From the NCBI GenBank assembly GCA_965237675.1, contig OZ250150.1, forward strand, positions 3,008,001 to 3,072,000: a DNA stretch of 64,000 nucleotides, in the 5' to 3' direction. Within the stretch, counting starts at the first letter, position 1. Each line of letters begins with the position of its first letter. The notes under the pieces were generated by a model. That model did no database searches, was not told where the DNA came from, and worked only from the letters and a program-made list of their open reading frames with translations. Below are positions 2,696 to 49,849 of the stretch, piece after piece. The position numbers and the translations under genes were made by a program. The stretch comes from Candidatus Latescibacterota bacterium. Lineage in GTDB: Bacteria; Latescibacterota; UBA2968; GCA-2709665.

Positions 2696-3430
2696 TTAAG
2701 GATTGCATTTTGTGGCCTTTTCCTTCCAATTCTCGTAAAACCGTCTTGCGTATCCCCTGAAGACATCCAGCTTCCCCACCACAGCCCGTTCGAAATCCAC
2801 CATCGCATCTTCTCCCAGCGTATCCACCAGGGCTCTGTGGTACGCCGGCACGGCGCCCCACTCTTCGATGGTATCCTCCGTAATCTCGATATGAAACTGG
2901 GCGGTGATCGCGTGATCCCCCATACTCATCGCCTGAACCGCGCACAACTCCGACGATGCAAGGACCTCCAGTTCATCCGGCACCGCCGTCACCGCCGAGC
3001 TATGCCATTGCAGACAGGGCAGCGTCGCGGGGAAACCCCGGAAGAAACCACTCGCCTTACCCGGTGTCGTGAGGGAAATATCCATCACCCCCACCTCGGG
3101 CCGGTCGTTCAGGCCCACGGTACCGCCTAGGGCTGCCGCCAGCAACTGGTGGCCGAGGCAGATGCCCACAAACGGCATCTTTCTCTCGACCACTGCGTAC
3201 CGAATGGCGGCTTTCTCCTCGATCAACCACGGATGAACATCCTCTTCCCAGACGTCCATGGGCCCACCCATCACCCATAACGCGTCGTAGGCGTACGGAT
3301 CCGGGATGCGCTCTCCCGCATCCAGTTCCACGACGTCCCACGAAATTCCGTCCTCGGCGAAGAACTCGCGAAACAGGCCGGGATGTTCGACGTCCAGGTG
3401 TTGAAAGACGAGCAGACGTTTAAGGGCCAT
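2696..3430 (-). CDS. class I glutamine amidotransferase-like protein
   Basis: MGGPM, GICLGHQ nucleophile elbow, QFHIE (H-x-E). Confidence 0.9.
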   Translation of the reverse strand: MALKRLLVFQHLDVEHPGLFREFFAEDGISWDVVELDAGERIPDPYAYDALWVMGGPMDVWEEDVHPWLIEEKAAIRYAVVERKMPFVGICLGHQLLAAALGGTVGLNDRPEVGVMDISLTTPGKASGFFRGFPATLPCLQWHSSAVTAVPDELEVLASSELCAVQAMSMGDHAITAQFHIEITEDTIEEWGAVPAYHRALVDTLGEDAMVDFERAVVGKLDVFRGYARRFYENWKEKATKCNP

Positions 3431-30109: not shown

Positions 30110-30174
30110 CTCGCGACCTCCTTCCCCACATGGATCAACATGGATTCGTCAACTTCGAAAACCCAAATCGACCT

Positions 30175-30300
30175 ACATGGATGGACAGGATGAACAGGAT
30201 GAAAACCGCAGGAAAAAACGAAAACAGAGAAAGCCACAAAAAGCACAAAAGACACAAAAAATGCGGCAAACCAAAACCGCTGAAAAAGGATGGATAGGAT
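30175..30300 (+). repeat. adjacent CATGGAT-family and CCACAAAAAG-family 9-nt-periodic repeats
   Basis: ACATGGATGGACAGGATGAACAGGAT 30175-30200; GCCACAAAAAGCACAAAAGACACAAAAA 30233-30260. Confidence 0.8.
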
Positions 30301-40135: not shown

Positions 40136-41949
40136 GAGTCCACTCCGAAAAGTCGAGTTTACTTATTGAGGAAAAAGTACTAAATTTCAAGGTGAGAAGA
40201 GGTTTCAAAGTTGCGGACGTATAAAGGAAAAAGCGAGGGTATAGAATCAATGTATAAGAGAAGCGCGTCATGCAGCCAACCGGATCTGTTTTCGGGCTTC
40301 GAGTCGCATTTCAAGAGGCGCAAGCAGGACCAGTTGAATGATCCGAAGTCGTGGCATAATCTGTTTTACCAGCACGTCACGTCAAAGATAGAAGAGGATG
40401 TGTTTTCGGTGTTGTTTGATCCCAACCAAGGCCGCCCCAATGCGCCGATTCGTCACCTGGTGTCGATGATGATCTTGAAGGAGGGCTTTGGGTGGAGCGA
40501 TGCCCAACTATTCGAGCATTGTCGGTTCAACATCCTGGTGATGCGGGCATTGGGGTTGATGAATCTATGCGATGAAGTGCCTGCGGAGTCCACGTATTAT
40601 TTGTTCAAGCAGGCCTTGTATGCGGATCAACTCGAAGCCGGTCGAGATCTGATTGGAGAGACCTTTTCCAGCTTGACACAGACGCAGGCCAACGCCTTTG
40701 GTGTATTAGGTCAGCACATCCGAATGGACAGTAAGTTGATCGGCTCTAACATTGCCCTGTGTTGTCGGTTGCAGTTGGTGGTGCGTTGCTTACAAGGGTT
40801 CTGGGGGTCGCTGGACAAGGCCCAAAAGCGACGATCATCGGCAAAAAATCAGCAGGTTTTGGACGGATTGCTGAAGGTGAAGGCGCATCAGGTTGTCTAT
40901 GGTCTCACCCGCGCTGAAAAGTGTGAGAAGCTGCAGGAATGCGGGCAGTTATTGAGCAGGCTTCAAGCGACCTATACCGACGAAGACAGCGGTCACTACG
41001 GTCTGATCGTGCGTGTTATGGGGGATCAATATACCGTTTTATCGTCCTCCAAACAGGTGCTTCCGAAGCCTCCTAAAGAGATCTCCTCATCCTCCTTGCA
41101 GTCTGCCGATGATGAAGATGCGACCTTTCGCAGGAAAGGGAAGGACAAGGTGAAAGGATACAGTGTCAACCTCACCGAGACCTGTGGTGAGGACGGCCTC
41201 AATTTGATCACGGACGTTGACGTCAAACCGGCGACGACGCCCGACAATGCGTTTGTACAAGCGGCCATCGAGCGGACGCAACAGGTCGTGGGTGACGCCT
41301 TGGAAGTGTCAATGGATGGGGCCTATAATGATCAATCCAACGCCGAGTATGCAAAAGAACAGGACAAGCAATTCTATTACAGTGGCCTGCAAGGAACCCC
41401 AGGACGTTTCATTTATGAACGCACAGAAGATGGCGTCACCGTCATCGATCAACAAACCGGAGAGGTTCACATAGCCCAAGAATACAAACCGGGAAAATAC
41501 AAAATCATCATGGATGGCAAACCCCGATACTTTAAAGAACAGCACATCGACAATTACCTCAAACGCAAACAGATTGAAGCCCTGCCTGACCACATCAGAA
41601 ACCGACGCAATAACGTCGAAGCCAGCATCTTTCAGTTGAGCTACTACACCAAAGATGGCAAGACGCGCTATCGCGGACTGAGGCCACACCAATTGTGGGC
41701 GCACTGTCGCGGCTTATGGGTCAACCTCGTTCGGATCAAGAACTACCTCGCAACACCTCCGATGCTCCCCGCATAAGGGGGGGTTTCTTGCAAAAACCTC
41801 CATACCATAGGCCCTGAGCAACTTCGTAGGTTGCCCCTGAGTTGATTTGCCGCACCTACACGTTATATCGTCGCCACACGCTAAATCACAATACCCAACC
41901 CTGACCACTTACATCAGGCCTTTATAACCCCCGTTTTCGGAGGGGACTC
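40136..41949 (+). mobile_element. insertion sequence (IS5/IS1182-like DDE)
   Basis: TIRs GAGTCCACTCCGAAAA / TTTTCGGAGGGGACTC; 6-bp TSD AGCCTT at 40130-40135 and 41950-41955. Confidence 0.92.
40250..41776 (+). CDS. DDE transposase
   Basis: GRP...WSD..L DUF772-like N-terminus; RMDSK, MDGAY, RNNVEA catalytic residues. Confidence 0.9.
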   Translation: MYKRSASCSQPDLFSGFESHFKRRKQDQLNDPKSWHNLFYQHVTSKIEEDVFSVLFDPNQGRPNAPIRHLVSMMILKEGFGWSDAQLFEHCRFNILVMRALGLMNLCDEVPAESTYYLFKQALYADQLEAGRDLIGETFSSLTQTQANAFGVLGQHIRMDSKLIGSNIALCCRLQLVVRCLQGFWGSLDKAQKRRSSAKNQQVLDGLLKVKAHQVVYGLTRAEKCEKLQECGQLLSRLQATYTDEDSGHYGLIVRVMGDQYTVLSSSKQVLPKPPKEISSSSLQSADDEDATFRRKGKDKVKGYSVNLTETCGEDGLNLITDVDVKPATTPDNAFVQAAIERTQQVVGDALEVSMDGAYNDQSNAEYAKEQDKQFYYSGLQGTPGRFIYERTEDGVTVIDQQTGEVHIAQEYKPGKYKIIMDGKPRYFKEQHIDNYLKRKQIEALPDHIRNRRNNVEASIFQLSYYTKDGKTRYRGLRPHQLWAHCRGLWVNLVRIKNYLATPPMLPA

Positions 41950-44328
41950 AGCCTTGCCATTTTCAAAACATGGTGTCACCTTTGACAATAACACATCGTT
42001 GTCCGCGAAGTAGGTGTAGCTGGCGCCAACCTGACCGAGTAATCTCTGCTCCTTAGCGACGAACGTGATCTGATTCTCGTTGAGATCCGACATCGGTACA
42101 AATGAGACTGTTGCATCCATTGATATCGACGCGAGTTCGGATTTGCGAGGATTGACAATACAAATCTCTCCAATTGGTACAAACGGGAATTCACTACTGA
42201 TCCTTGTTGTCTCCCGATACCTCTCCCCACTCAGACTGTATTCCCCACCTTCCTTGATTTTGGTTTTTTCGACGATGAGGGCCGCGCCTTGCTGGATGAG
42301 TTTCTGCAACACTGACTCATCGGGGGTGGGGGGCGTTTCGTCTTTATCCTGCCTATCCTGTCCATCCATGTTCCCCCTGCCATCCATGTATTCCTTCAAA
42401 GCCAGTTGCGTTTTCGGGAGGTCGTTCTTGTCAATCGGTCTGCGCTGAGCACCAAGGTCGAAGCCGTCGTTTTCGACCTTGAAAAAGGCGATGTAGTCCG
42501 TCCTTTTCGCCAGGGTTTTGTCGAGGATCAGGATGGATGTCTTGACGCCGGAGTAGGGATTGAACACACCCGCGGGAAGAGAGACCACGGCCACGAGGTA
42601 CTCCTCGACCAGCATCTTGCGCAACTGTTTATGGGCGTTCTGGCTCTGAAAGATGATACCCTCGGGCACGATGATCCCGGCGCGGCCGGCTGGCGTGAGA
42701 TGCTCGGCCATGTAGTCCACGAACAGCACTTCGCTGCGTTTCGATTTCACCGAAAAGTGGCTGTGCGGGCGGATGCCGCCCTTGGGCGACATGAACGGCG
42801 GATTGGCCAGAATCACTTCGGCGTACTCGTTCCAGCGGTCCTCGCTGGTGAGGGTGTCGTATTCGAAGATGTGCGGGTCGGCGAAGCCGTGCAGGTACAT
42901 GTTTACCAGCGACAGGCGCACCATGTCCGGCGAGATGTCGTAGCCCTTGAAGTTGGCCGCGAGTTTGGCCCGTTCGTCCGGCGTGAACGTGCTGTGTCCC
43001 TTGTCGTCGGTATTGGCCGCATGGATATGCTTGTACGACGAAATCAGAAACCCGGCGGTGCCGCAGGCCGGGTCGAGGATGGTTTCGTTCTTCCTGGGGT
43101 CGATGACGGCGACCATGAAGTCGATGATATGGCGGGGGGTTCGGAACTGTCCGGCGTCGCCCTGGGACCCGAGGACCGAGAGCAGGTACTCGAAGGCGTC
43201 GCCGAGCCGCTCTGAATGGTCATAGGTAAACTCGTCGATGACTTTCAGGAAGGCGCGGAGGGTCTCAGGGTCTCGATACGGGAGATAGGCGTTGTTGAAG
43301 ATGTCACGGAAAAGCGGCGGGATGCCGGGGTTCTCGGGCATCTTGACAATGGCCTCGGCGTAGCGATTCAGGACTTCGTGTCCGCCCAGGCCGGATCGCA
43401 TCAGCCTGGCCCAGCCGAACCGGGCGAAGTCACCGGCGAAGAACTTCCGCGCGCCTCCGAATTCCTCGCTACCGGCGTCCATGTCGTCCATGAACTTGTA
43501 GATCAACGCGATGGTAATCTGCTCGACCTGGCTCTTGGGATCGGGCACCTTTCCGACAAGGATGTCTCGAGCGGTATCGATACGCCGTTTCGTTTCGCTA
43601 TCAAGCATAGGTAGAAGATCCTTTTTGGCCACAAAAAGCACAAAATGCACAGAAGGGATAGAAGCCAACCGGCGTGTGAAGAAACGCCTGCAGTCCGTAA
43701 GGAATATTGGCGTTATTCGTAGCTATTCAGCAGTTCACGCAATAAGCCTTTTTGTGTTTTTGTGCCTTTTGTGGCAATTGTTTTTACGCGGCAAACTGGT
43801 TGAGCGGGATAATAACCACAAAAAGCACAGAACGCACAGAAATTAAGGAGCTGAATGGCAGGTGTCGAATCGACTCGATTCTGTAGTTATCACGGTGTTT
43901 TTCTTGGCTATATAGCCAGTTACTGGTTAATTCTTTTTTTGTGTTTTTGTGCCTTTTGTGGCAATTGTTTTTACACGGCAAACTGGTTGAGTAGGACGAT
44001 AGCCACAAAAAGCACAGACGGCACAGAAATTAAGGAGCTGAATGGCAGGTGTAGAATCGACTCGATTCTGTAGTCAGTACGGTGTTTCTCTTGGCTATAC
44101 ACCCTGTAACTGATTGGTTCTTTTTGTGTTTTTGTGCCTTTTGTGGCAATTGTTTTTGCGCGGCAAACTGGCTAAGCGGGACAATAACCACAAAAAGCAC
44201 AGAAAGCACAGAAAGTGAACATCAGCGTACAAACGGTCAGAATTCGATCGCCCTACGTGCCAATATAGAGTGAGACAACTCCCCATCCGAGTTTAGTGTA
44301 GGTTTGAGGGCGGAGAGGAGAGCAAGAG

Positions 44329-44797
44329 ATGATGAGTATGGACAACGGCCGACAGGAGCAGGTGTCGGTAGCAGTCCCGGAGCGGAGCGAAGGGACTGCT
44401 ACCGAGGCGCCCCGCCCTGACCCGGAAGTGCCAGAGAAGGCGAAGCGCCGGCGGTTCACTGCGCGGTACAAGCTTCGGGTCCTCCAAGAGGCGGAGGCGT
44501 GTCGAGAGCCGGGTCAGCTCGGCGCATTGCTGCGACGAGAGGGGCTATACTCCTCGCACCTGGCACAATGGCGTCGCGCCCGGCGTGAAAGGATCGTTGA
44601 AGGCGCTTTCCAAGCAGCGCGGTCCCAAGGGCCGTCGTCGCGAACCGGTGGCCGTCGAGAACGAGCAGCTACGCAAAGAAAACGCTCGGTTGCGACGACG
44701 CCTGGAGCAGGCGCAGATGGTCCTTGAGATCCAAAAAAAAGCCTCGGAGATCCTGGGCATCCCCCTGAACCCGCCGCCGAGCGACGACGACGCATGA
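44329..44797 (+). pseudogene. IS3-family OrfA with internal +1 frameshift
   Basis: RRRFTARYKL, LLRREGLYSSHL..WR, then GSLKAL...LEIQKKAS in another frame; extra A at 44588-44590. Confidence 0.75.
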
Positions 44798-45807
44798 AAG
44801 CCGCCGCCGAACAATTGGCCCCGACCGTCGGCTTGGCTTCGGCGTGCCGCGCGTTGGGTGTGGCTCGGGCCTCGGTCTACCGGCAGCGCAAGCCCCCTGT
44901 GTCGAGACGCCGTCCCTGTTGCCGGCCTTCGCCGCGTGCGCTGGCCCCGCCGGAGCGAGCCCACGTGCTGGACGTGCTGCACGAGGACCGCTTCGTAGAC
45001 CGAGCCCCGGCGGCAGTATACGCCATCCTGCTGGAGCAAGGACGGTATCTGTGCTCGATACGAACGATGTATCGCCTGCTCCACAATGCCAAAGAGGTGC
45101 ACGAGCGACGACGACAGCGGCGCCACCCGCATCGGGAACCGCCGCGCCTGGTGGCCACCGCCCCAAACCAGGTGTGGACTTGGGACATCACGCGCCTGCC
45201 GGGTCCGCGCAAGTGGGTGACCTATCCCCTCTATGTGGTGCTGGATCTGTTCTCGCGCTACGTCGTGGCTTGGATGGTGGCCACGTGCGAGAGCGCCACC
45301 CGGGCGCAGCGGTTAATCCACAGCGCCTGCCAAAAGCAGGACATCGAGCCCGGACAACTCACCCTGCACCAGGACCGGGGTGGGCCGATGACGGCTAAGA
45401 CGTTTTCGCAGTTGTTGATCGATCTGGACATCCTGGCCAGCTACTCGAGGCCGCGCGTGTCCGATGACAATCCGTACTCGGAAAGCCAATTCAAGACGCT
45501 TAAATACGCACCGACGTACCCGGGGCGCTTTTCCAGTACTCACAACGCGCGCACCTATTTCCAGACGTTTTTCCCCTGGTACAACACCCAACACCGTCAC
45601 AGTGGATTGGGGCTGCTCACACCGGACAAAGTGCACTACGGCCTGGCCGACGAGATTCAGACGGCACGACAGCACGTGCTCCACAAGGCCTTTGCAAACC
45701 ATCCTGAACGCTTCGTCAACGGCCCGCCTCGACCACCACGGGTTCCTCGTGCAGTCTGGATCAATCAGCCACCAAACTCCATCGAATGCGACCGTATGCG
45801 TCATTGA
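44794..45807 (+). CDS. IS3-family OrfB transposase (rve core)
   Basis: PNQVWTWDIT, LDLFSRY, HQDRG, DNPYSESQFKTLKY, YNTQHRH. Confidence 0.92.
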   Translation: MKAAAEQLAPTVGLASACRALGVARASVYRQRKPPVSRRRPCCRPSPRALAPPERAHVLDVLHEDRFVDRAPAAVYAILLEQGRYLCSIRTMYRLLHNAKEVHERRRQRRHPHREPPRLVATAPNQVWTWDITRLPGPRKWVTYPLYVVLDLFSRYVVAWMVATCESATRAQRLIHSACQKQDIEPGQLTLHQDRGGPMTAKTFSQLLIDLDILASYSRPRVSDDNPYSESQFKTLKYAPTYPGRFSSTHNARTYFQTFFPWYNTQHRHSGLGLLTPDKVHYGLADEIQTARQHVLHKAFANHPERFVNGPPRPPRVPRAVWINQPPNSIECDRMRH

Positions 45808-45874
45808 ATTCTCACGCGAGGTGTCTCATTCCTATTGACATGTTCCGTCGCGCCTTTTGTGGCTACGAAGCAAT

Positions 45875-46255
45875 TCACAGGATTAGCTTTTTTACCTGGA
45901 GCTTTGCGGCGCCGAAGTTGATGAGCATAGCGTCACGATGACCGGATGCGCGGAGATAGCCCAGCGTCTGTGCGATATGTTCCGGTGCCAAAGTCCTGGC
46001 AGCCTTAAGCTCAAGAACAAGGCAGTTTTCCACGAACAAATCGGCAAAGAAGCTGCCGAGGAGCGTACCGTCTTCATCGCGCACCTGTAGAGGCTTTTGC
46101 TGCTCGACAGAAAGGCCAATCTTACTCAAACGGTGGGCCATTCCATTCTCATACACCTTCTCCAGGTGACCATTCCGAAGATGGGTATGCAATTCAAAAG
46201 CCGTTTGCCGAACCTTATCACACAAATCTCGAACGCGCTGGTCGTCTCTTTTCAC
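45875..46255 (-). CDS. GxxExxY protein (PD-(D/E)XK-like nuclease fold)
   Basis: GHLEKVY motif, ADLFVE..LVLELKA, HIAQTLGYL, LINFG; GTG start at 46255. Confidence 0.92.
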   Translation of the reverse strand: MKRDDQRVRDLCDKVRQTAFELHTHLRNGHLEKVYENGMAHRLSKIGLSVEQQKPLQVRDEDGTLLGSFFADLFVENCLVLELKAARTLAPEHIAQTLGYLRASGHRDAMLINFGAAKLQVKKLIL

Positions 46256-47281
46256 TTTATAACCGATCAATTGGCCACAAAAAGCACAAAAGGCACCGAA
46301 AGTATAGAAGCCAAACGGCAGGTGCCGAAACAACGGGACTCAACATCCATTATCGGTGTCGGCGGTGGCCCATCATCAGTTTGGCCACAAAAAGCACAAA
46401 AGGTACAGAAATTAAATGGCTGAACAGCGGGTGTAGAATCGACTCCATTCTGTAGTCACTGCGGTGTTTTCCTAGGCTATACACCCTGTAACTGAATAGT
46501 TCCTTTTTGTGTTTTTGTGCCTTTTGTGGCCATTGCCTTTAAGCCGCGAACTGGCTGAACGGGAAAATAACCACAAAAAGCACAGAAGGCACAGAAATTA
46601 GAGAACTGAACGGCAGGTGTAGAACCGCCTCGATTCCCTAGCTAATACGGTGTTTTTCTAGGCCATTTGCCGGTTTTCGGGGTCGTTTCCTTTTGTGTTT
46701 TTGTGCCTTTTGTGGCCATTGATTTTATGCAGCAAACTGGTTCAGCGGGACAAAAAGCACAGAAGGCACAGAGGGTGCAGAATAGAAACGACATGTGTAG
46801 CAACGACTGCACTCGGTATCGACTATTGGTGTCATTCGCGGCTATTCAGCAGTTCACGGAATAGGCCTTTTTGCCTTTTGTGTTTTTGTGCCTTTTGTGG
46901 CCATTGTCTTTACACGGCAAACTGATTGAGCGGGACGACAACCACAAAAAGCACAGAAGGCACAGAAATTAAGGAGCTGAACGGCAGGTGTCGAATCGAC
47001 TCGATTCTGTAGTTATTACGCTGTTTTTCTTGGCTATACAGCCAGTAACTGGTTAATTCTTTTTTTTGTGTTTTTGTGCCTTTTGTGGCAATTGTTTTTA
47101 CGCGGCAAACTGGTTGAGCGGGATAATAACCACAAAAAGCACAGAACGCACAGAAGGTATAGAAGCTAAACGGCATGTGTAGAAACGACGGGATTCAGTA
47201 TCGACTATTGGTGTCATTCGTGGCTATTCATCCTTTCACAGAATAAGTATTTTTCTCTTGTGCCTTTTGTGGCAATCGATT

Positions 47282-49813
47282 CTATGCAGCAAACTGGTTC
47301 AAAGGTACGTAGTCTTTCACGTATTCGGGAACGAGGGTGCGGTATTTTTCCGGTACGGCCCCCAGGTCTTTCATTGAGAGAACCGGGCTCGTGGCCAGGT
47401 CGGTGAAGTGCCGGTTTTCGATGATGTGGCGGATCTGGTCGCTTGTGACGTACGCCTTGAAATAGGTCTTGATCGCGGGGATGGACTCGACCTCCTCGGG
47501 GGTGTAGTCGGCCACGAACTTCGCGAATTCCTCTTCCAGCATTTCGTCCCTGGATTTAAATCGCGGGATCAGCCCGAACACTTTCTCCAGAATCTCCCGC
47601 AGGGTGATGCGGCGGTCCACGGCCGCTGCTCGGCGCAGCTTTTCAAGGGTGTAGTACTCCTCGGGTCGGTCGAAGACCTCCTGGTTGACGTAGTCGATGA
47701 CCCGGTCCCAGTGACCGGCCTCCACGGCCTGGGCGATAGTGTCGTCCTTGCGCACGGCATCCTCGAATTTCTCGAAGAACATGCGGTCGATCTTCATCCC
47801 TTCCGAACCGATGGCCTCGACCTGGATCGAGGAGAGGATGTCCCTGCCCAGGTATTCGTAGGCGCCCGCGTCGGACCCGGGCTGTTCCCCGCCCCCTCTT
47901 TCATGGGCGTCTTTATAGACCACAGGCAAATTCAACACTTCGTCGTAGTTGAACTCGGTCTCGAAGTATTCGCAGCTGGCGAAGAAGTCGAACAGCTTGA
48001 ACGCGGTCTTATCGGGCTCGTCTACGCGTTCCGCCACGGCCGGATTGAGCAACTGCTCGAGGAAGTCGTGTTTCCGCGTGCCCCGCCCCTTGATCTGGAT
48101 GAAGTCGGTGGGGGAGAAGATGGGGCGGAACAGACCCAGATTCAGAATATCCGTGCAATCGTACCCGGTGGTCATCATGCCAACGGTCACACAGACCCGC
48201 GCTTTACATGTCCGATAGGAGGGGAGAAAGTTGCACGAGCCGAGCAGTTTATTGTTTGCAAAATTGATGGTTAGCTGCTGCGCGTGCGCAATCTGCGACG
48301 TCACCTGAACCGCAAAATCCGATTGATAGCGGTCAGGAAACATGACGTGGGCCATGGCGTTGAGGATCTGAGTCAATCTTGCCGCGTGGTTCTGGCTGAC
48401 TGCAAAGACGATGGACTTGCCGACTTCGCCGCTGACGGGGTCCCGCAGCGCATTCTCCAGGAAAGTCTTGCAGAAAAGCTGGTTGGTCGCTTCGGAATAG
48501 AAACGCTTCTCAAATTCACGCTGTTTGTAGGCCTCTTCCTGCTCTTCTCCCTCATCGTCCTTAAAAGAAACGACGAATCCCTGTTCCGAGAGCAAATCGG
48601 TCGTCACCTTCGTGCGTGCGTCCACAACCGTCGGATTGATCAGATAGCCATCTTTCACGCCGTCGAGCAGCGAGTACTTGAACGTGGGCTGCCCGCTCTC
48701 GCATCCAAACGTGCGGTAGGTATCCATCAGAAGCCGGCGTTCGGCGTCGCGCGGATCCCGCGTGGTGGGGTGCGTGTGGTCGAACCCCTTGAGGTAGTCG
48801 CGGGGGGTTGCGGTGAGGCCCAGCTTGTACCCCACGAAATAGTCGAATACGGACCGGGCATTGCCGCCGATGGACCGGTGCGCTTCGTCCGAGATGACGA
48901 GGTCGAAGTCGGTCGGTGAGAAAAGGGTCTGGTACTTGTTGTTGAACAGGAGCGATTGGACCGTGGTAACGACAATCTCCTCGGAGCGCCAGTCGTCGCG
49001 CCGCTCTTTGTAGACCACCGTCTGAAAGTCGGCCGAAAGCAGTGCAGCGAAGACCTTCCGTGCCTGCTCCTCGAGTTCCAGCCGGTCGACGAGGAACAGG
49101 ACGCGAGACGCGTTGCCGGAACGGAGAAAAAGCTTTATGACCGCGGCGGCGACAAGGGTCTTTCCCGTACCCGTGGCCATCTCGAACAGAAATCGGTCTC
49201 TGCCGTCTTTCACCGCCCGTTGCAGGGAGTGAACGGCTCTGAGTTGGTAATCACGGAGGAAGCGAAGGTTGTTGGCCTTGATGAAACCTGGGCGTTCGGT
49301 TTCGTTCTTCCACGCGGCTTCCGAGCGGTAATTCGGCCGCTGGGTGAGCACGATGTAGTCCTCGCCGACCCGCTCGTCAACCAGGCGCTGCGGGTTGGGC
49401 TGGACTCTGTTGTAGACGGTTACGGATTGCGGCGTCGGGAACGATGTGACAACGTACGGATTGCCTCGTTCGAGGTCCCAGAAGTAATGCAGGTTTCCGT
49501 TCGATAGGATAACGAAACGGCAGGCCTGCGAGCGGGCGTACTTTCGCGCCTGCTCCTTGCCCGCCAAGGGATCCTTGTCTTCCGACTTGGCCTCCAGGAC
49601 AATGAGGGGAAAACCTTTGCCGTCCAACAGCAGAAAATCGATACGACCAGACGTCCCCTCGAAATCGTCGCCCAATGCGTCGAGGTCCGCGTTTTTCAGG
49701 ACGACCTTGTGTTCGACGCGAATGTTGCCGGGCTTGCCTTCATCATCGAAGAAGCGCCACCCGGCCGCCTCGAGCATTTTATTGATCTTGATTCGCGCCG
49801 CTGCTTCATTCAT
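47282..49813 (-). CDS. hsdR: type I restriction enzyme subunit R
   Basis: IDFLL..LEAK..QARKYA nuclease, LRDYQ, MATGTGKT, DEAHRS, GLTATP, QIKGRGTR. Confidence 0.93.
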   Translation of the reverse strand: MNEAAARIKINKMLEAAGWRFFDDEGKPGNIRVEHKVVLKNADLDALGDDFEGTSGRIDFLLLDGKGFPLIVLEAKSEDKDPLAGKEQARKYARSQACRFVILSNGNLHYFWDLERGNPYVVTSFPTPQSVTVYNRVQPNPQRLVDERVGEDYIVLTQRPNYRSEAAWKNETERPGFIKANNLRFLRDYQLRAVHSLQRAVKDGRDRFLFEMATGTGKTLVAAAVIKLFLRSGNASRVLFLVDRLELEEQARKVFAALLSADFQTVVYKERRDDWRSEEIVVTTVQSLLFNNKYQTLFSPTDFDLVISDEAHRSIGGNARSVFDYFVGYKLGLTATPRDYLKGFDHTHPTTRDPRDAERRLLMDTYRTFGCESGQPTFKYSLLDGVKDGYLINPTVVDARTKVTTDLLSEQGFVVSFKDDEGEEQEEAYKQREFEKRFYSEATNQLFCKTFLENALRDPVSGEVGKSIVFAVSQNHAARLTQILNAMAHVMFPDRYQSDFAVQVTSQIAHAQQLTINFANNKLLGSCNFLPSYRTCKARVCVTVGMMTTGYDCTDILNLGLFRPIFSPTDFIQIKGRGTRKHDFLEQLLNPAVAERVDEPDKTAFKLFDFFASCEYFETEFNYDEVLNLPVVYKDAHERGGGEQPGSDAGAYEYLGRDILSSIQVEAIGSEGMKIDRMFFEKFEDAVRKDDTIAQAVEAGHWDRVIDYVNQEVFDRPEEYYTLEKLRRAAAVDRRITLREILEKVFGLIPRFKSRDEMLEEEFAKFVADYTPEEVESIPAIKTYFKAYVTSDQIRHIIENRHFTDLATSPVLSMKDLGAVPEKYRTLVPEYVKDYVPLNQFAA

Positions 49814-49849
49814 GGATGGGTTATCTCTTATTTCATTCAGAATCAACTA

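Follow-up and report, generated by a model that had tools for sequence, protein, structure and literature searches.

The window analysed here, 64,000 nucleotides of contig OZ250150.1 from a Candidatus Latescibacterota bacterium, contains a type I restriction operon whose hsdR and hsdM genes are separated by about 3.6 kb of hairpin repeats (positions 43629–47272; positions are those of the window unless another sequence is named). A small gene of the GxxExxY family lies within these repeats, and relatives of this gene were usually found boxed by inverted, periodic arms, as compact cassettes. On balance, and with moderate confidence, we read the gap between hsdR and hsdM as a pile-up of gene-less derivatives of such a GxxExxY cassette. 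These would have multiplied along with a copied hsdR tail, most likely by recombination between arms. This reading builds on the anatomy of the array and the homologies among its parts, on the association of gene and arms across phyla, on selection on the arm sequence and on the exchange of cassettes at this site, all of which are observed.

The array consists of eight complete units of about 146 bp, each with a 27-bp arm of 9-nt period, an interior of about 90–95 nt and the inverted arm, together with one partial unit and one small unit whose loop holds an insertion sequence (IS); there are about 19 arms in total. Tandem Repeats Finder (TRF) returned a period of 186–187 bp at 43748–44214 (2.5 copies) and 46385–47189 (4.3 copies), and found the arms periodic at 8–9 nt at every position that an initial annotation of the window had named. 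That annotation had described an array of hairpin units, a description with which TRF, the repeat search and the unit map all agree, and its right-arm spacings (187 and 185, then 186, 185, 188 and 184 bp) were reproduced exactly by the repeat search, with 2383 bp between the two groups. With at most three mismatches, the left-arm pattern matched 11 times in the window, ten times in the array and once at 30234; 100 shuffles of the window gave an expectation of 0. A CRISPR-like array was ruled out, since the arms alternate in orientation and both kinds of intervening sequence are homologous among the units. A coding repeat was ruled out as well, because the six short spacings break the reading frame.

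Read on the operon strand from hsdR, the order is the true hsdR tail (T0), then U10, U9, U8, U7 and U6 with a linker (T) between each unit and the next, the partial U5, the GxxExxY gene, the small U4 with the IS, and U3, U2 and U1, each preceded by a linker, before hsdM. Alignment assigned the interiors to two interleaved classes. Class c1 comprises U9 (46942–47088), U7 (46571–46715), U6 (46385–46529), U3 (44003–44146) and U2 (43816–43961); class c2 comprises U10 (47130–47272, also delimited by repeat families), U8 (46748–46900, also by TRF, with four 9-mers in its right arm) and U1 (43629–43774, followed by 20 nt to the hsdM ATG). The partial U5 (46275–46384) has a left arm and part of a c2 interior, without a right arm. 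U4 is represented by its left arm (44188–44214) with the left part of a short interior, together 44188–44249, and by a right-arm stub at 45851–45863, which was recognized from its repeat family and from an IS-free joint in sequencing run X8. Interiors are 67–94% identical within c1, 70–74% within c2 and 55–69% between the classes, so that c1 and c2 are diverged relatives rather than unrelated sequences. The two interleaved classes are those of the initial annotation, which had not stated their mutual homology.

The linkers, of about 40 bp, are copies of the last ~10 codons of hsdR with the stop codon and a spacer. On the operon strand, the real gene ends in VPLNQFAA, stop and a 9-nt spacer, and the linkers read L/F-N/S-Q-F-A-A/V-stop and then a spacer that resembles it. 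The real tail (T0, 47273–47313, minus strand), identified by repeat family and linker alignment as the source of the linkers, falls in the linker/arm repeat family (47258–47308, 88% over 51 nt). Since an LNxFxx-type tail ends 118 of the 120 HsdR homologues among the matches listed, which come from several phyla, the LNQFAA tail is native to HsdR. All linkers lie on the minus strand. Those at 47089–47129 (IIPLNQFAA, stop) and 43775–43815 are 100% identical, and those at 46901–46941 and 43962–44002 both end in LNQFAV and a stop. The linker at 46716–46747 is short and nearest to the real tail (LNQFAA, stop), with a 9-nt deletion at the arm junction; that at 46530–46570 is diverged (FSQFAA, stop), and that at 44147–44187 has lost its stop codon (LSQFAAQ). 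Every copy opens with one common post-arm junction, TTATTATCCCGCTC-like, and therefore we take the linkers to have had one origin and to have been amplified afterwards. An earlier candidate source of the linker, the 3′ end of the GxxExxY gene (INFGAA compared with LNQFAA), was dropped because the hsdR tail matches in DNA and is native to HsdR.

To what does the small gene in this array belong? We surveyed 80 loci encoding relatives of its protein in Latescibacterota, Acidobacteriota, Gemmatimonadota, Planctomycetota, Verrucomicrobiota, Chloroflexota, Nitrospirota, Ignavibacteria, Cyanobacteria and others, of which 79 could be scored for arms; kinship among the loci inflates the counts of arms, polarity and period that follow. 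Arms were counted as an inverted repeat with a score of at least 28 between two 250-nt flanks, with controls shifted by 1–1.6 kb. Inverted arms box the gene in 69 of the 79 loci, compared with 4 of 286 shifted controls. In the usual form, a purine-rich arm lies about 20 nt before the start codon and a pyrimidine-rich arm lies 0–3 nt past the stop codon or overlaps it. Of 61 cassettes, 41 have a purine-rich and two a pyrimidine-rich arm upstream. Furthermore, in 32 of 50 cassettes the outer end of the purine-rich arm is −12 to +15 nt from the stop codon of a co-oriented frame (frames open over 90 codons or more were counted), compared with 10 of 48 in the mirrored control. Genes for four-helix-bundle proteins (PF05635) in the same phylum are also boxed by arms, in 15 of 30 cases, compared with none of 54 controls.

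The arm sequence follows the protein clade, the types being CACAAAAGG, CGCAAAG, GATGAACGC, GGACAGGAT and ACTGAT/TATGAT. The arms of the window's array are of the CACAAAAGG type with period 9, and the same type flanks relatives at 55–91% protein identity. For protein pairs that are 55–70% identical, the mean arm identity is 0.62 and that at 4-fold degenerate sites is 0.30; for pairs that are 30–45% identical, the values are 0.22 and 0.25, and the background, with one arm shuffled, is 0.27. Thus, the arms change in step with the protein, and on these comparisons they are under selection as sequences. Both the association of GxxExxY genes with periodic inverted repeats and the co-variation of protein and repeat, which the initial annotation had put forward as checks on its model, were therefore found. 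The period also goes with the protein family: among 20 scorable GxxExxY arms it is 9 in 11, 10 in eight and 11 in one, and among 13 scorable four-helix-bundle arms it is 7 in 11 and 8 in two. The arms of 61 cassettes contain 1895 Watson–Crick pairs, 81 sense-strand G·U pairs, 79 A·C mismatches and 182 other mismatches; since G·U is no commoner than A·C, an RNA stem does not appear to be favoured.

The loaded cassettes most informative for the array are those at loci L013, L014, L015 and L016, which have the canonical form arm–gene–arm–trailer–arm: a purine-rich arm (CCACAAAAGGCACAAAA...), a short leader, the GxxExxY gene, a second purine-rich arm, a trailer and a pyrimidine-rich arm. The c2 and c1 interiors match the trailers of such cassettes in BLASTN searches (L016 at 2986–3054 and L014 at 2921–2959), and the short loop of L013 and L015 resembles the unit interiors as judged by eye. 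Whichever strand is read, the units have the polarity of the canonical cassette, with the purine-rich arm leading. The window's own gene (45875–46255, minus strand) is not inside arms with the purine-rich one upstream. It has a pyrimidine-rich arm upstream (46300–46274) and a purine-rich stub downstream (45863–45851), so it occupies a linker position, between hairpins. Cassettes also decay in place, since 7 of 74 GxxExxY matches checked are broken by an internal stop or a frameshift (L027, L028, L058, L069, L077, L080 and L085).

The gene has a GTG start and encodes 126 amino acids, and it is the only gene in the array besides those of the IS, as the initial annotation had it. The protein matches PF13366 (GxxExxY/PDDEXK_3) with E = 5e-29 and 101.4 bits (cut-off 22) over profile positions 2–116 of 117, and TIGR04256 with E = 4e-33 and 114.2 bits (cut-off 35). 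The GxxExxY motif is GHLEKVY at residues 29–35. Of the PD-(D/E)XK residues, D72 is the same in all of 68 sequences, and E82 and K84 are each kept in 90% or more of them. The AlphaFold2 model, with a mean predicted local distance difference test (pLDDT) score of 95.7, has a PD-(D/E)XK (restriction-endonuclease-like) fold, and its best Foldseek matches are Cas4 SSO0001 (E = 5.4e-4, TM-score normalized to the query 0.57), lambda exonuclease and Hjc; a sequence search of the PDB gave no solved relative, only ankyrin noise. The profiles, the conserved residues and the model thus agree with the fold family to which the initial annotation had assigned the protein. The ratio of nonsynonymous to synonymous substitution rates (dN/dS) against six orthologues is 0.095–0.129, and as far as its sequence tells, the gene is intact and under selection. 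Since the sequence and the period of the arms follow the protein and not the host, the GxxExxY protein probably recognizes its own arms, binding their 9–10-nt iterons.

Of 41 related genomes, the window's own included, 16 were found to have the 3′ end of hsdR, and what follows it varies. The hsdR–hsdM junction is empty in L131 (genome G025), with 26 nt from stop to ATG; L136 (G024) has a gene-less periodic hairpin; L017 has a clean GxxExxY cassette of the simple form arm–gene–arm; and L013–L015 and L019 have hairpins in addition to a CACAAAAGG-type cassette. In close relatives, the loaded cassette begins a few bases past the hsdR stop codon. L124 (G008), L125 (G012) and L126 (G015) instead hold a GxxExxY gene of another clade, with 41–45% identity and ACAGGAT-type arms, in genomes whose hsdR 3′ end is 87–89% identical in DNA to that of the window. 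Conversely, where the GxxExxY gene shows 91% identity to the window's, the hsdR in front of it shows only 73%. Because the identities of clade and hsdR disagree in this way, cassettes have been exchanged at the hsdR stop codon independently of hsdR. With both clades included, nine of the 80 survey loci lie directly behind an HsdR tail of the window's family, and the other 71 lie elsewhere. Two of the sites have further peculiarities. In L126 (60–215), ahead of the second-clade gene, the purine-rich arm behind the hsdR stop codon has grown to about 20 tandem copies of AGACAGGAT. In L127 (G001), about 800 nt of GC-rich, apparently structured and non-coding-looking sequence stands in place of a cassette between the hsdR stop codon and an ACAGGAT-type arm.

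Arrays of this size are rare. Among 64 loci, the number of arm cores per 5 kb is one in 21, two in 32, three in seven, four in two, five in one and seven in one; with 53 of the 64 loci at one or two cores and a maximum of seven, the building of arrays at a fixed site, as the initial annotation proposed, is not a general property of the family. Smaller arrays occur at L019 (at least five hairpins with a period of about 104–108 nt, after the gene), L020 (at least two copies of flank plus hairpin, period 190 nt) and L010 (three to four units, period 178 nt). At L016/L137, the linkers copy the local 5′ flank, after a tetratricopeptide-repeat-like gene, and their linker-like sequence was ruled out as an hsdR tail. 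Co-duplication of a 5′ flank with a hairpin is thus found at three independent loci, namely the window, L020 and L016/L137. In the window, the linkers at 43775 and 47089, each taken with its adjoining arm, agree in all of 67 nt but lead into a c1 and a c2 interior, respectively, and U2 and U9 are 95% identical although 3 kb apart. The arm 9-mers that have multiplied in L126 and a related population with two units fewer (described below) likewise speak for local amplification and exchange. Recombination within arms would explain such mosaics, so that the interleaving of the two classes, which the initial annotation had held against slippage, is a weak argument. Since arrays are rare, since all linkers have one junction, and since arms abound where no cognate gene was found, we read the array as a local amplification and not as purposeful building.

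The pieces of the array have also spread. In the window's own 5.6-Mb genome (G000), the arm occurs at 17 further sites, of which one is solitary and 16 sit within other repeats resembling miniature inverted-repeat transposable elements (MITEs). Twelve lie in copies of a single MITE-like repeat whose ends are of the TTAACCTCAATTCG type, and four are in a composite flanked by a 41-bp hairpin repeat, which includes a diverged copy of the hsdR-tail linker. Because the dispersed copies lie inside other repeats, the array pieces have spread as passengers. A 439-bp piece of the array matches 27 of 41 related genomes (again counting the window's own), mostly through its arms. Orthologues of the window gene at 81% identity or more were found in four of the 41, absence elsewhere resting on one protein query, and genomes in which none was found have 17–24 matches to the array piece (e.g., 24 in G022 and 22 in G009). 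Judged by this query, the repeats here do not depend on a resident cognate gene, as those of the REP/RAYT systems considered below would. Genome G000 has many periodic repeat families and, by this count, three GxxExxY genes and one four-helix-bundle gene, each with its own arm type.

Several of these dispersed elements merit description. Near-identical MITE-like elements of about 230 bp with one solo arm each lie at G000:C1 39014, 431878, 893088, 1961497, 2047595 and 4666975; they have TTAACCTCAATTCG and CGAATCAAGGTTAA ends and TTAA at both borders, and look recently active. The 41-bp hairpin repeat (CACTGCTGTCC...GGACAGGTGTGA) stands on both sides of an array fragment at G000:C1:4710745, 135856, 768331 and 2050643; the composite at 4710745 breaks a DUF4160-like reading frame and has a 9-bp target duplication, GCTGTGGAT. 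Within the window, solo periodic arms of at least three types (ACATGGAT..., ACAGGATGA..., CCACAAAAAGCACAAAAGACAC and GGATGGATAGGAT) are clustered at 30120–30300, just upstream of a minus-strand gene, and two of these types flank GxxExxY genes elsewhere. A second GxxExxY gene of the genome (G000:C1:3995251–3995595) has ACGAAAGTCGCGAAA-type arms, and about 130 bp are tandemly duplicated there, from the 3′ end of the preceding gene through the arm to the first GxxExxY codons, which is another co-duplication of a flank. The four-helix-bundle gene at G000:C1:1368011–1368325 has 7-nt periodic arms and is followed by a gene-less copy with leader and trailer, and then by tandem arm repeats.

The proposed history of the array is as follows. 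If a loaded cassette lost its gene between its two direct purine-rich arms, the arm–trailer–arm unit would remain. One such unit would then have been joined to a copy of the last ~10 codons of hsdR, the stop codon and the spacer, giving the 186-bp repeat. This repeat would have been amplified on either side of the gene by unequal recombination or slippage, of which we suggest recombination, and interiors would have been exchanged through recombination within the arms.

A number of points weigh against this history, which is a reconstruction. The window gene is without the canonical purine-rich arm upstream, and it has a GTG start with no evident ribosome-binding site. In the seven well-aligned linker codons, third positions are variable in six of seven and first and second positions in four of 14; this is the pattern expected of distinct, functional hsdR alleles and thus of repeated acquisition, although the count is weak, being a manual one on copies that are not independent. 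The first junction of an arm with the hsdR tail could not arise by recombination between existing repeats, and the flank co-duplications at L020 and L016/L137 hint at a specific process rather than an accident. Finally, the c1 and c2 interiors differ by 31–45% while their adjoining linkers can be identical, so the interiors must have been imported.

What is the function of the GxxExxY protein in these cassettes? A tentative answer, to which we give clearly less weight than to the amplification of gene-less derivatives, is that GxxExxY proteins would be sequence-specific nucleases of an undescribed class of small selfish cassettes. Each protein would read three 9–10-nt iterons in its own inverted arms, and the cassettes would home just past the stop codons of co-oriented genes, in this case at the conserved hsdR tail. 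The hairpins would then be non-autonomous derivatives, and imprecise repair of the cuts would duplicate the 5′ flank with the hairpin to give arrays. If this is true, the four-helix-bundle cassettes (of the intervening-sequence, or IVS, protein family), with their 7-nt iterons, would be a sister class using another arm-binding protein. The four-helix-bundle cassettes, the arms without a cognate gene found and the hitch-hiking dispersed copies argue against a simple model in which the nuclease drives the repeats.

The model of the initial annotation was of that kind. By analogy with RAYT and its REP sequences or IntI and attC, GxxExxY would be a dedicated nuclease or recombinase that inserts units at the hsdR tail, and the array would be a series of successive site-specific insertions. 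In its favour, arms box 69 of the 79 loci (4 of 286 controls), the catalytic residues are retained with a dN/dS of about 0.1, and the arm type follows the gene clade and not the host: each of the three GxxExxY genes of G000 has a different arm type, and one arm type stays with one clade across phyla. The purine-rich end adjoins the stop of an upstream frame running in the same direction (32/50, compared with 10/48 mirrored), two cassette clades arrived independently 3–28 nt past one stop codon, tandem flank-plus-hairpin units are found at three loci, and linker variation is mainly at third codon positions. We nevertheless consider this model unlikely. All linkers have one 5′ junction in common, arrays are rare among GxxExxY loci, and no target-site duplication was seen at the units. 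Orthologues at 81% or above are present in four of 41 genomes, yet 17–24 matches to the array piece occur without one, and 16 of the 17 dispersed arm sites are inside other MITE-like repeats. Furthermore, four-helix-bundle genes, which have no nuclease motif, occupy the same kind of cassette (15/30, compared with 0/54), and the periodic repeat families of the genome far outnumber its three GxxExxY genes and one four-helix-bundle gene. Of the proposed nuclease with cognate repeats, the association of gene and arms and their co-variation have thus stood, while the array building, the position of the gene and the arms without a cognate gene speak against the rest.

Alternatively, the gene may be passive cargo, for example an accessory of restriction or defence, with the arms served by an unlinked, trans-acting enzyme of the host or of a transposon, or simply recombining. 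The enclosure of four-helix-bundle genes in the same design points this way, as do the persistence of arms where the cognate gene was not found, the dispersed copies that hitch-hike in MITE-like repeats (one with the 9-bp target duplication in the DUF4160-like gene) and the nine of 80 loci behind this HsdR family. However, the sequence and period of the arms follow the protein family and clade rather than the host phylum, one genome holds several arm types, and 71 of the 80 loci are away from this hsdR, so we regard passive cargo as improbable.

An element acting as RNA, like the intervening sequences of 23S rRNA, appears more doubtful still. Its arms would be cut by RNase III or would stabilize the upstream mRNA, and the array would tune the expression of hsdR relative to hsdM. 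Of 50 cassettes, 32 begin at the stop codon of a gene with the same orientation, the design is analogous to that of the intervening sequences that carry an open reading frame (PMC4990558), and the units and arm–linker–arm segments fold well as predicted RNA (z from −3.5 to −6.5). Thus, U9 has z = −3.7 on the minus strand and −5.1 on the plus strand, and U1 has −4.8 and −6.5. However, the operon-sense strand of this clade carries the A·C mismatches, and the antisense strand is predicted to fold better (−50.2 compared with −36.8 kcal·mol−1). The wobble bias expected of a selected RNA stem is absent from the arm mismatches (81 G·U, 79 A·C, 182 other), and the conservation of the arms is one of sequence, beyond pairing. 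Two promoter-like and seven terminator-like sites in the scan were not above the number in shuffled sequences. Sub-threshold Rfam matches of the arm–linker–arm hairpins to mir-3910 (22–29 bits, with a gathering score of 95) were rejected as the effect of any long hairpin and not as an RNA family. Contigs of RNA run X19 covered only the IS and one 32-nt arm piece, and are uninformative on transcription of the array.

The assembly of the array was compared with contigs of sequencing runs. In two runs from different studies, one of them X1, exact pieces were found at 45818–46532 (0 differences, across the junction of IS, gene and unit), 46571–46715 (X1 only), 46750–46903, 47126–47500 and 43522–43708. 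A contig from a related population has exactly two units fewer, joining 43754 to 44125. A further contig of X8 (depth 41.8) joins 43658, 47065–47089, 14 other letters and 45879, which would mean that a relative has hardly any array separating hsdM from the gene; its sides are only 25 nt, and we do not rely on it. No contig or read compared spans the whole 3.6 kb, but that the array is an assembly artefact, or a plain satellite with no biological connection to the gene, seems to us next to negligible, as the units differ by 5–45% and stand in a unique order, contigs of two separate studies contain exact pieces, including the junction of IS, gene and unit, and relatives hold homologous structures.

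Pfam and NCBIfam matches agree with the placement of the array between hsdR and hsdM given by the initial annotation. The hsdR gene (47282–49846, minus strand; Pfam ResIII/HSDR_N, NCBIfam restrict_EcoAI) encodes an EcoAI-like type I restriction R subunit, and hsdM (41914–43608, minus strand; Pfam N6_Mtase, E = 3.9e-49) encodes an N6 DNA methylase, with a likely start at the ATG at 43608, as read from the sequence and compared with relatives. As seen from hsdM, hsdS lies beyond a gene for an IS1182-type transposase (40211–41776, opposite strand), and because this gene separates hsdM from hsdS, the type I operon is split twice, here and by the array. The IS in the array (44250–45849, plus strand, about 1600 bp) is of the IS3 family, with orfA at 44329–44727 and orfB, a Pfam rve match, at 44794–45807. 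It is polymorphic: a contig of X8, from a related population, joins 44247 to 45848 with four shared letters, which is the empty site. This joint shows that the IS is recent, lies in the loop of the small hairpin and deleted nothing, and the possibility that it had removed the interior of a unit was ruled out. One base at 44588 is missing from contigs of three runs, so orfA in the window may hold a 1-nt assembly error.

How does the cassette compare with known systems? The repetitive extragenic palindromic (REP) sequences and their REPIN doublets, with the REP-associated tyrosine transposases (RAYTs), and the bacterial interspersed mosaic elements (BIMEs) of E. coli, comprise a small gene with inverted palindromic repeats of its own on either side. 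Copies without the gene are scattered between other genes, often just past stop codons, and form tandem mosaics of alternating orientation with two kinds of spacer. The GxxExxY cassette shares the small gene in its own inverted repeats, the dispersed gene-less copies and the mosaic tandems. It differs in that a RAYT is an HUH/Y1 transposase, whereas the cassette gene has a PD-(D/E)XK fold (PDDEXK_3 is the only Pfam match of the window gene). Its arms consist of three 9–10-nt iterons, its dispersed copies number tens and not hundreds and mostly ride other repeats, and its arms are retained even in genomes for which no cognate gene was found.

MITEs are small non-coding elements that end in inverted repeats, arise from a gene-bearing element through internal deletion and may be nested. 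The array units are likewise short and non-coding with inverted ends, their copies nest, and their derivation from a gene-bearing cassette is what we propose. Unlike MITEs, they have a 40-bp flank copy instead of a visible target-site duplication, no DDE transposase partner, and tandem amplification with a piece of the neighbouring gene. Integron arrays consist of serial units at one fixed site downstream of a gene, with imperfect inverted repeats as recombination sites. The array units are also serial, at a fixed site downstream of a gene, and have imperfect inverted repeats; in contrast, they are gene-less and mutually homologous, with two arms each rather than one attC. No integrase was found among the 11 neighbouring open reading frames scanned, a genome-wide search for IntI not being part of the analysis. 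The cassette resembles free-standing homing endonuclease genes as a small nuclease gene at the same spot between conserved genes, exchanged horizontally and independently of them. Periodic inverted arms and gene-less derivatives are not known from homing endonuclease genes, and these distinguish the cassette. The intervening sequences of 23S rRNA that bear an open reading frame (S23p/PF05635; Coxiella burnetii IVS, PMC4990558) are similar, having a small, conserved frame of unknown function in inverted repeats and looking like selfish insertions; moreover, their four-helix-bundle relatives in this phylum use the same cassette design. Here, however, the host is an mRNA operon (the hsdR–hsdM spacer), the cargo has a nuclease fold, and selection on the arms at the level of RNA is not seen.

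PF13366 is listed as ‘Unknown’ with ‘multiple transfers’ in Steczkiewicz et al. 2012 (PMC3424549), and a GxxExxY domain adjoining a reverse transcriptase is mentioned in PMC8934634. In a literature search of limited reach, the papers naming the family gave no function for it, and a periodic-armed GxxExxY cassette was not described in those reached. New here are the large array, the linker made of the hsdR tail, the exchange of two clades at one site, the rule that relates period to protein family and the lack of wobble bias.

The array demonstrates that a type I restriction operon can hold an insert of 3.6 kb between its R and M genes. PF13366 (GxxExxY) and PF05635 (IVS protein, Avd-like) are large and widespread families of unknown function, and this locus gives them a testable context: co-varying, selected arms, siting at stop codons, exchange apart from the flanking genes, and gene-less hairpins that amplify and spread within other repeats. 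If the protein acts on its arms, the cassette would represent a novel type of mobile element whose enzyme is a minimal PD-(D/E)XK protein, and it would account for many of the short, periodic repeats found between bacterial genes.

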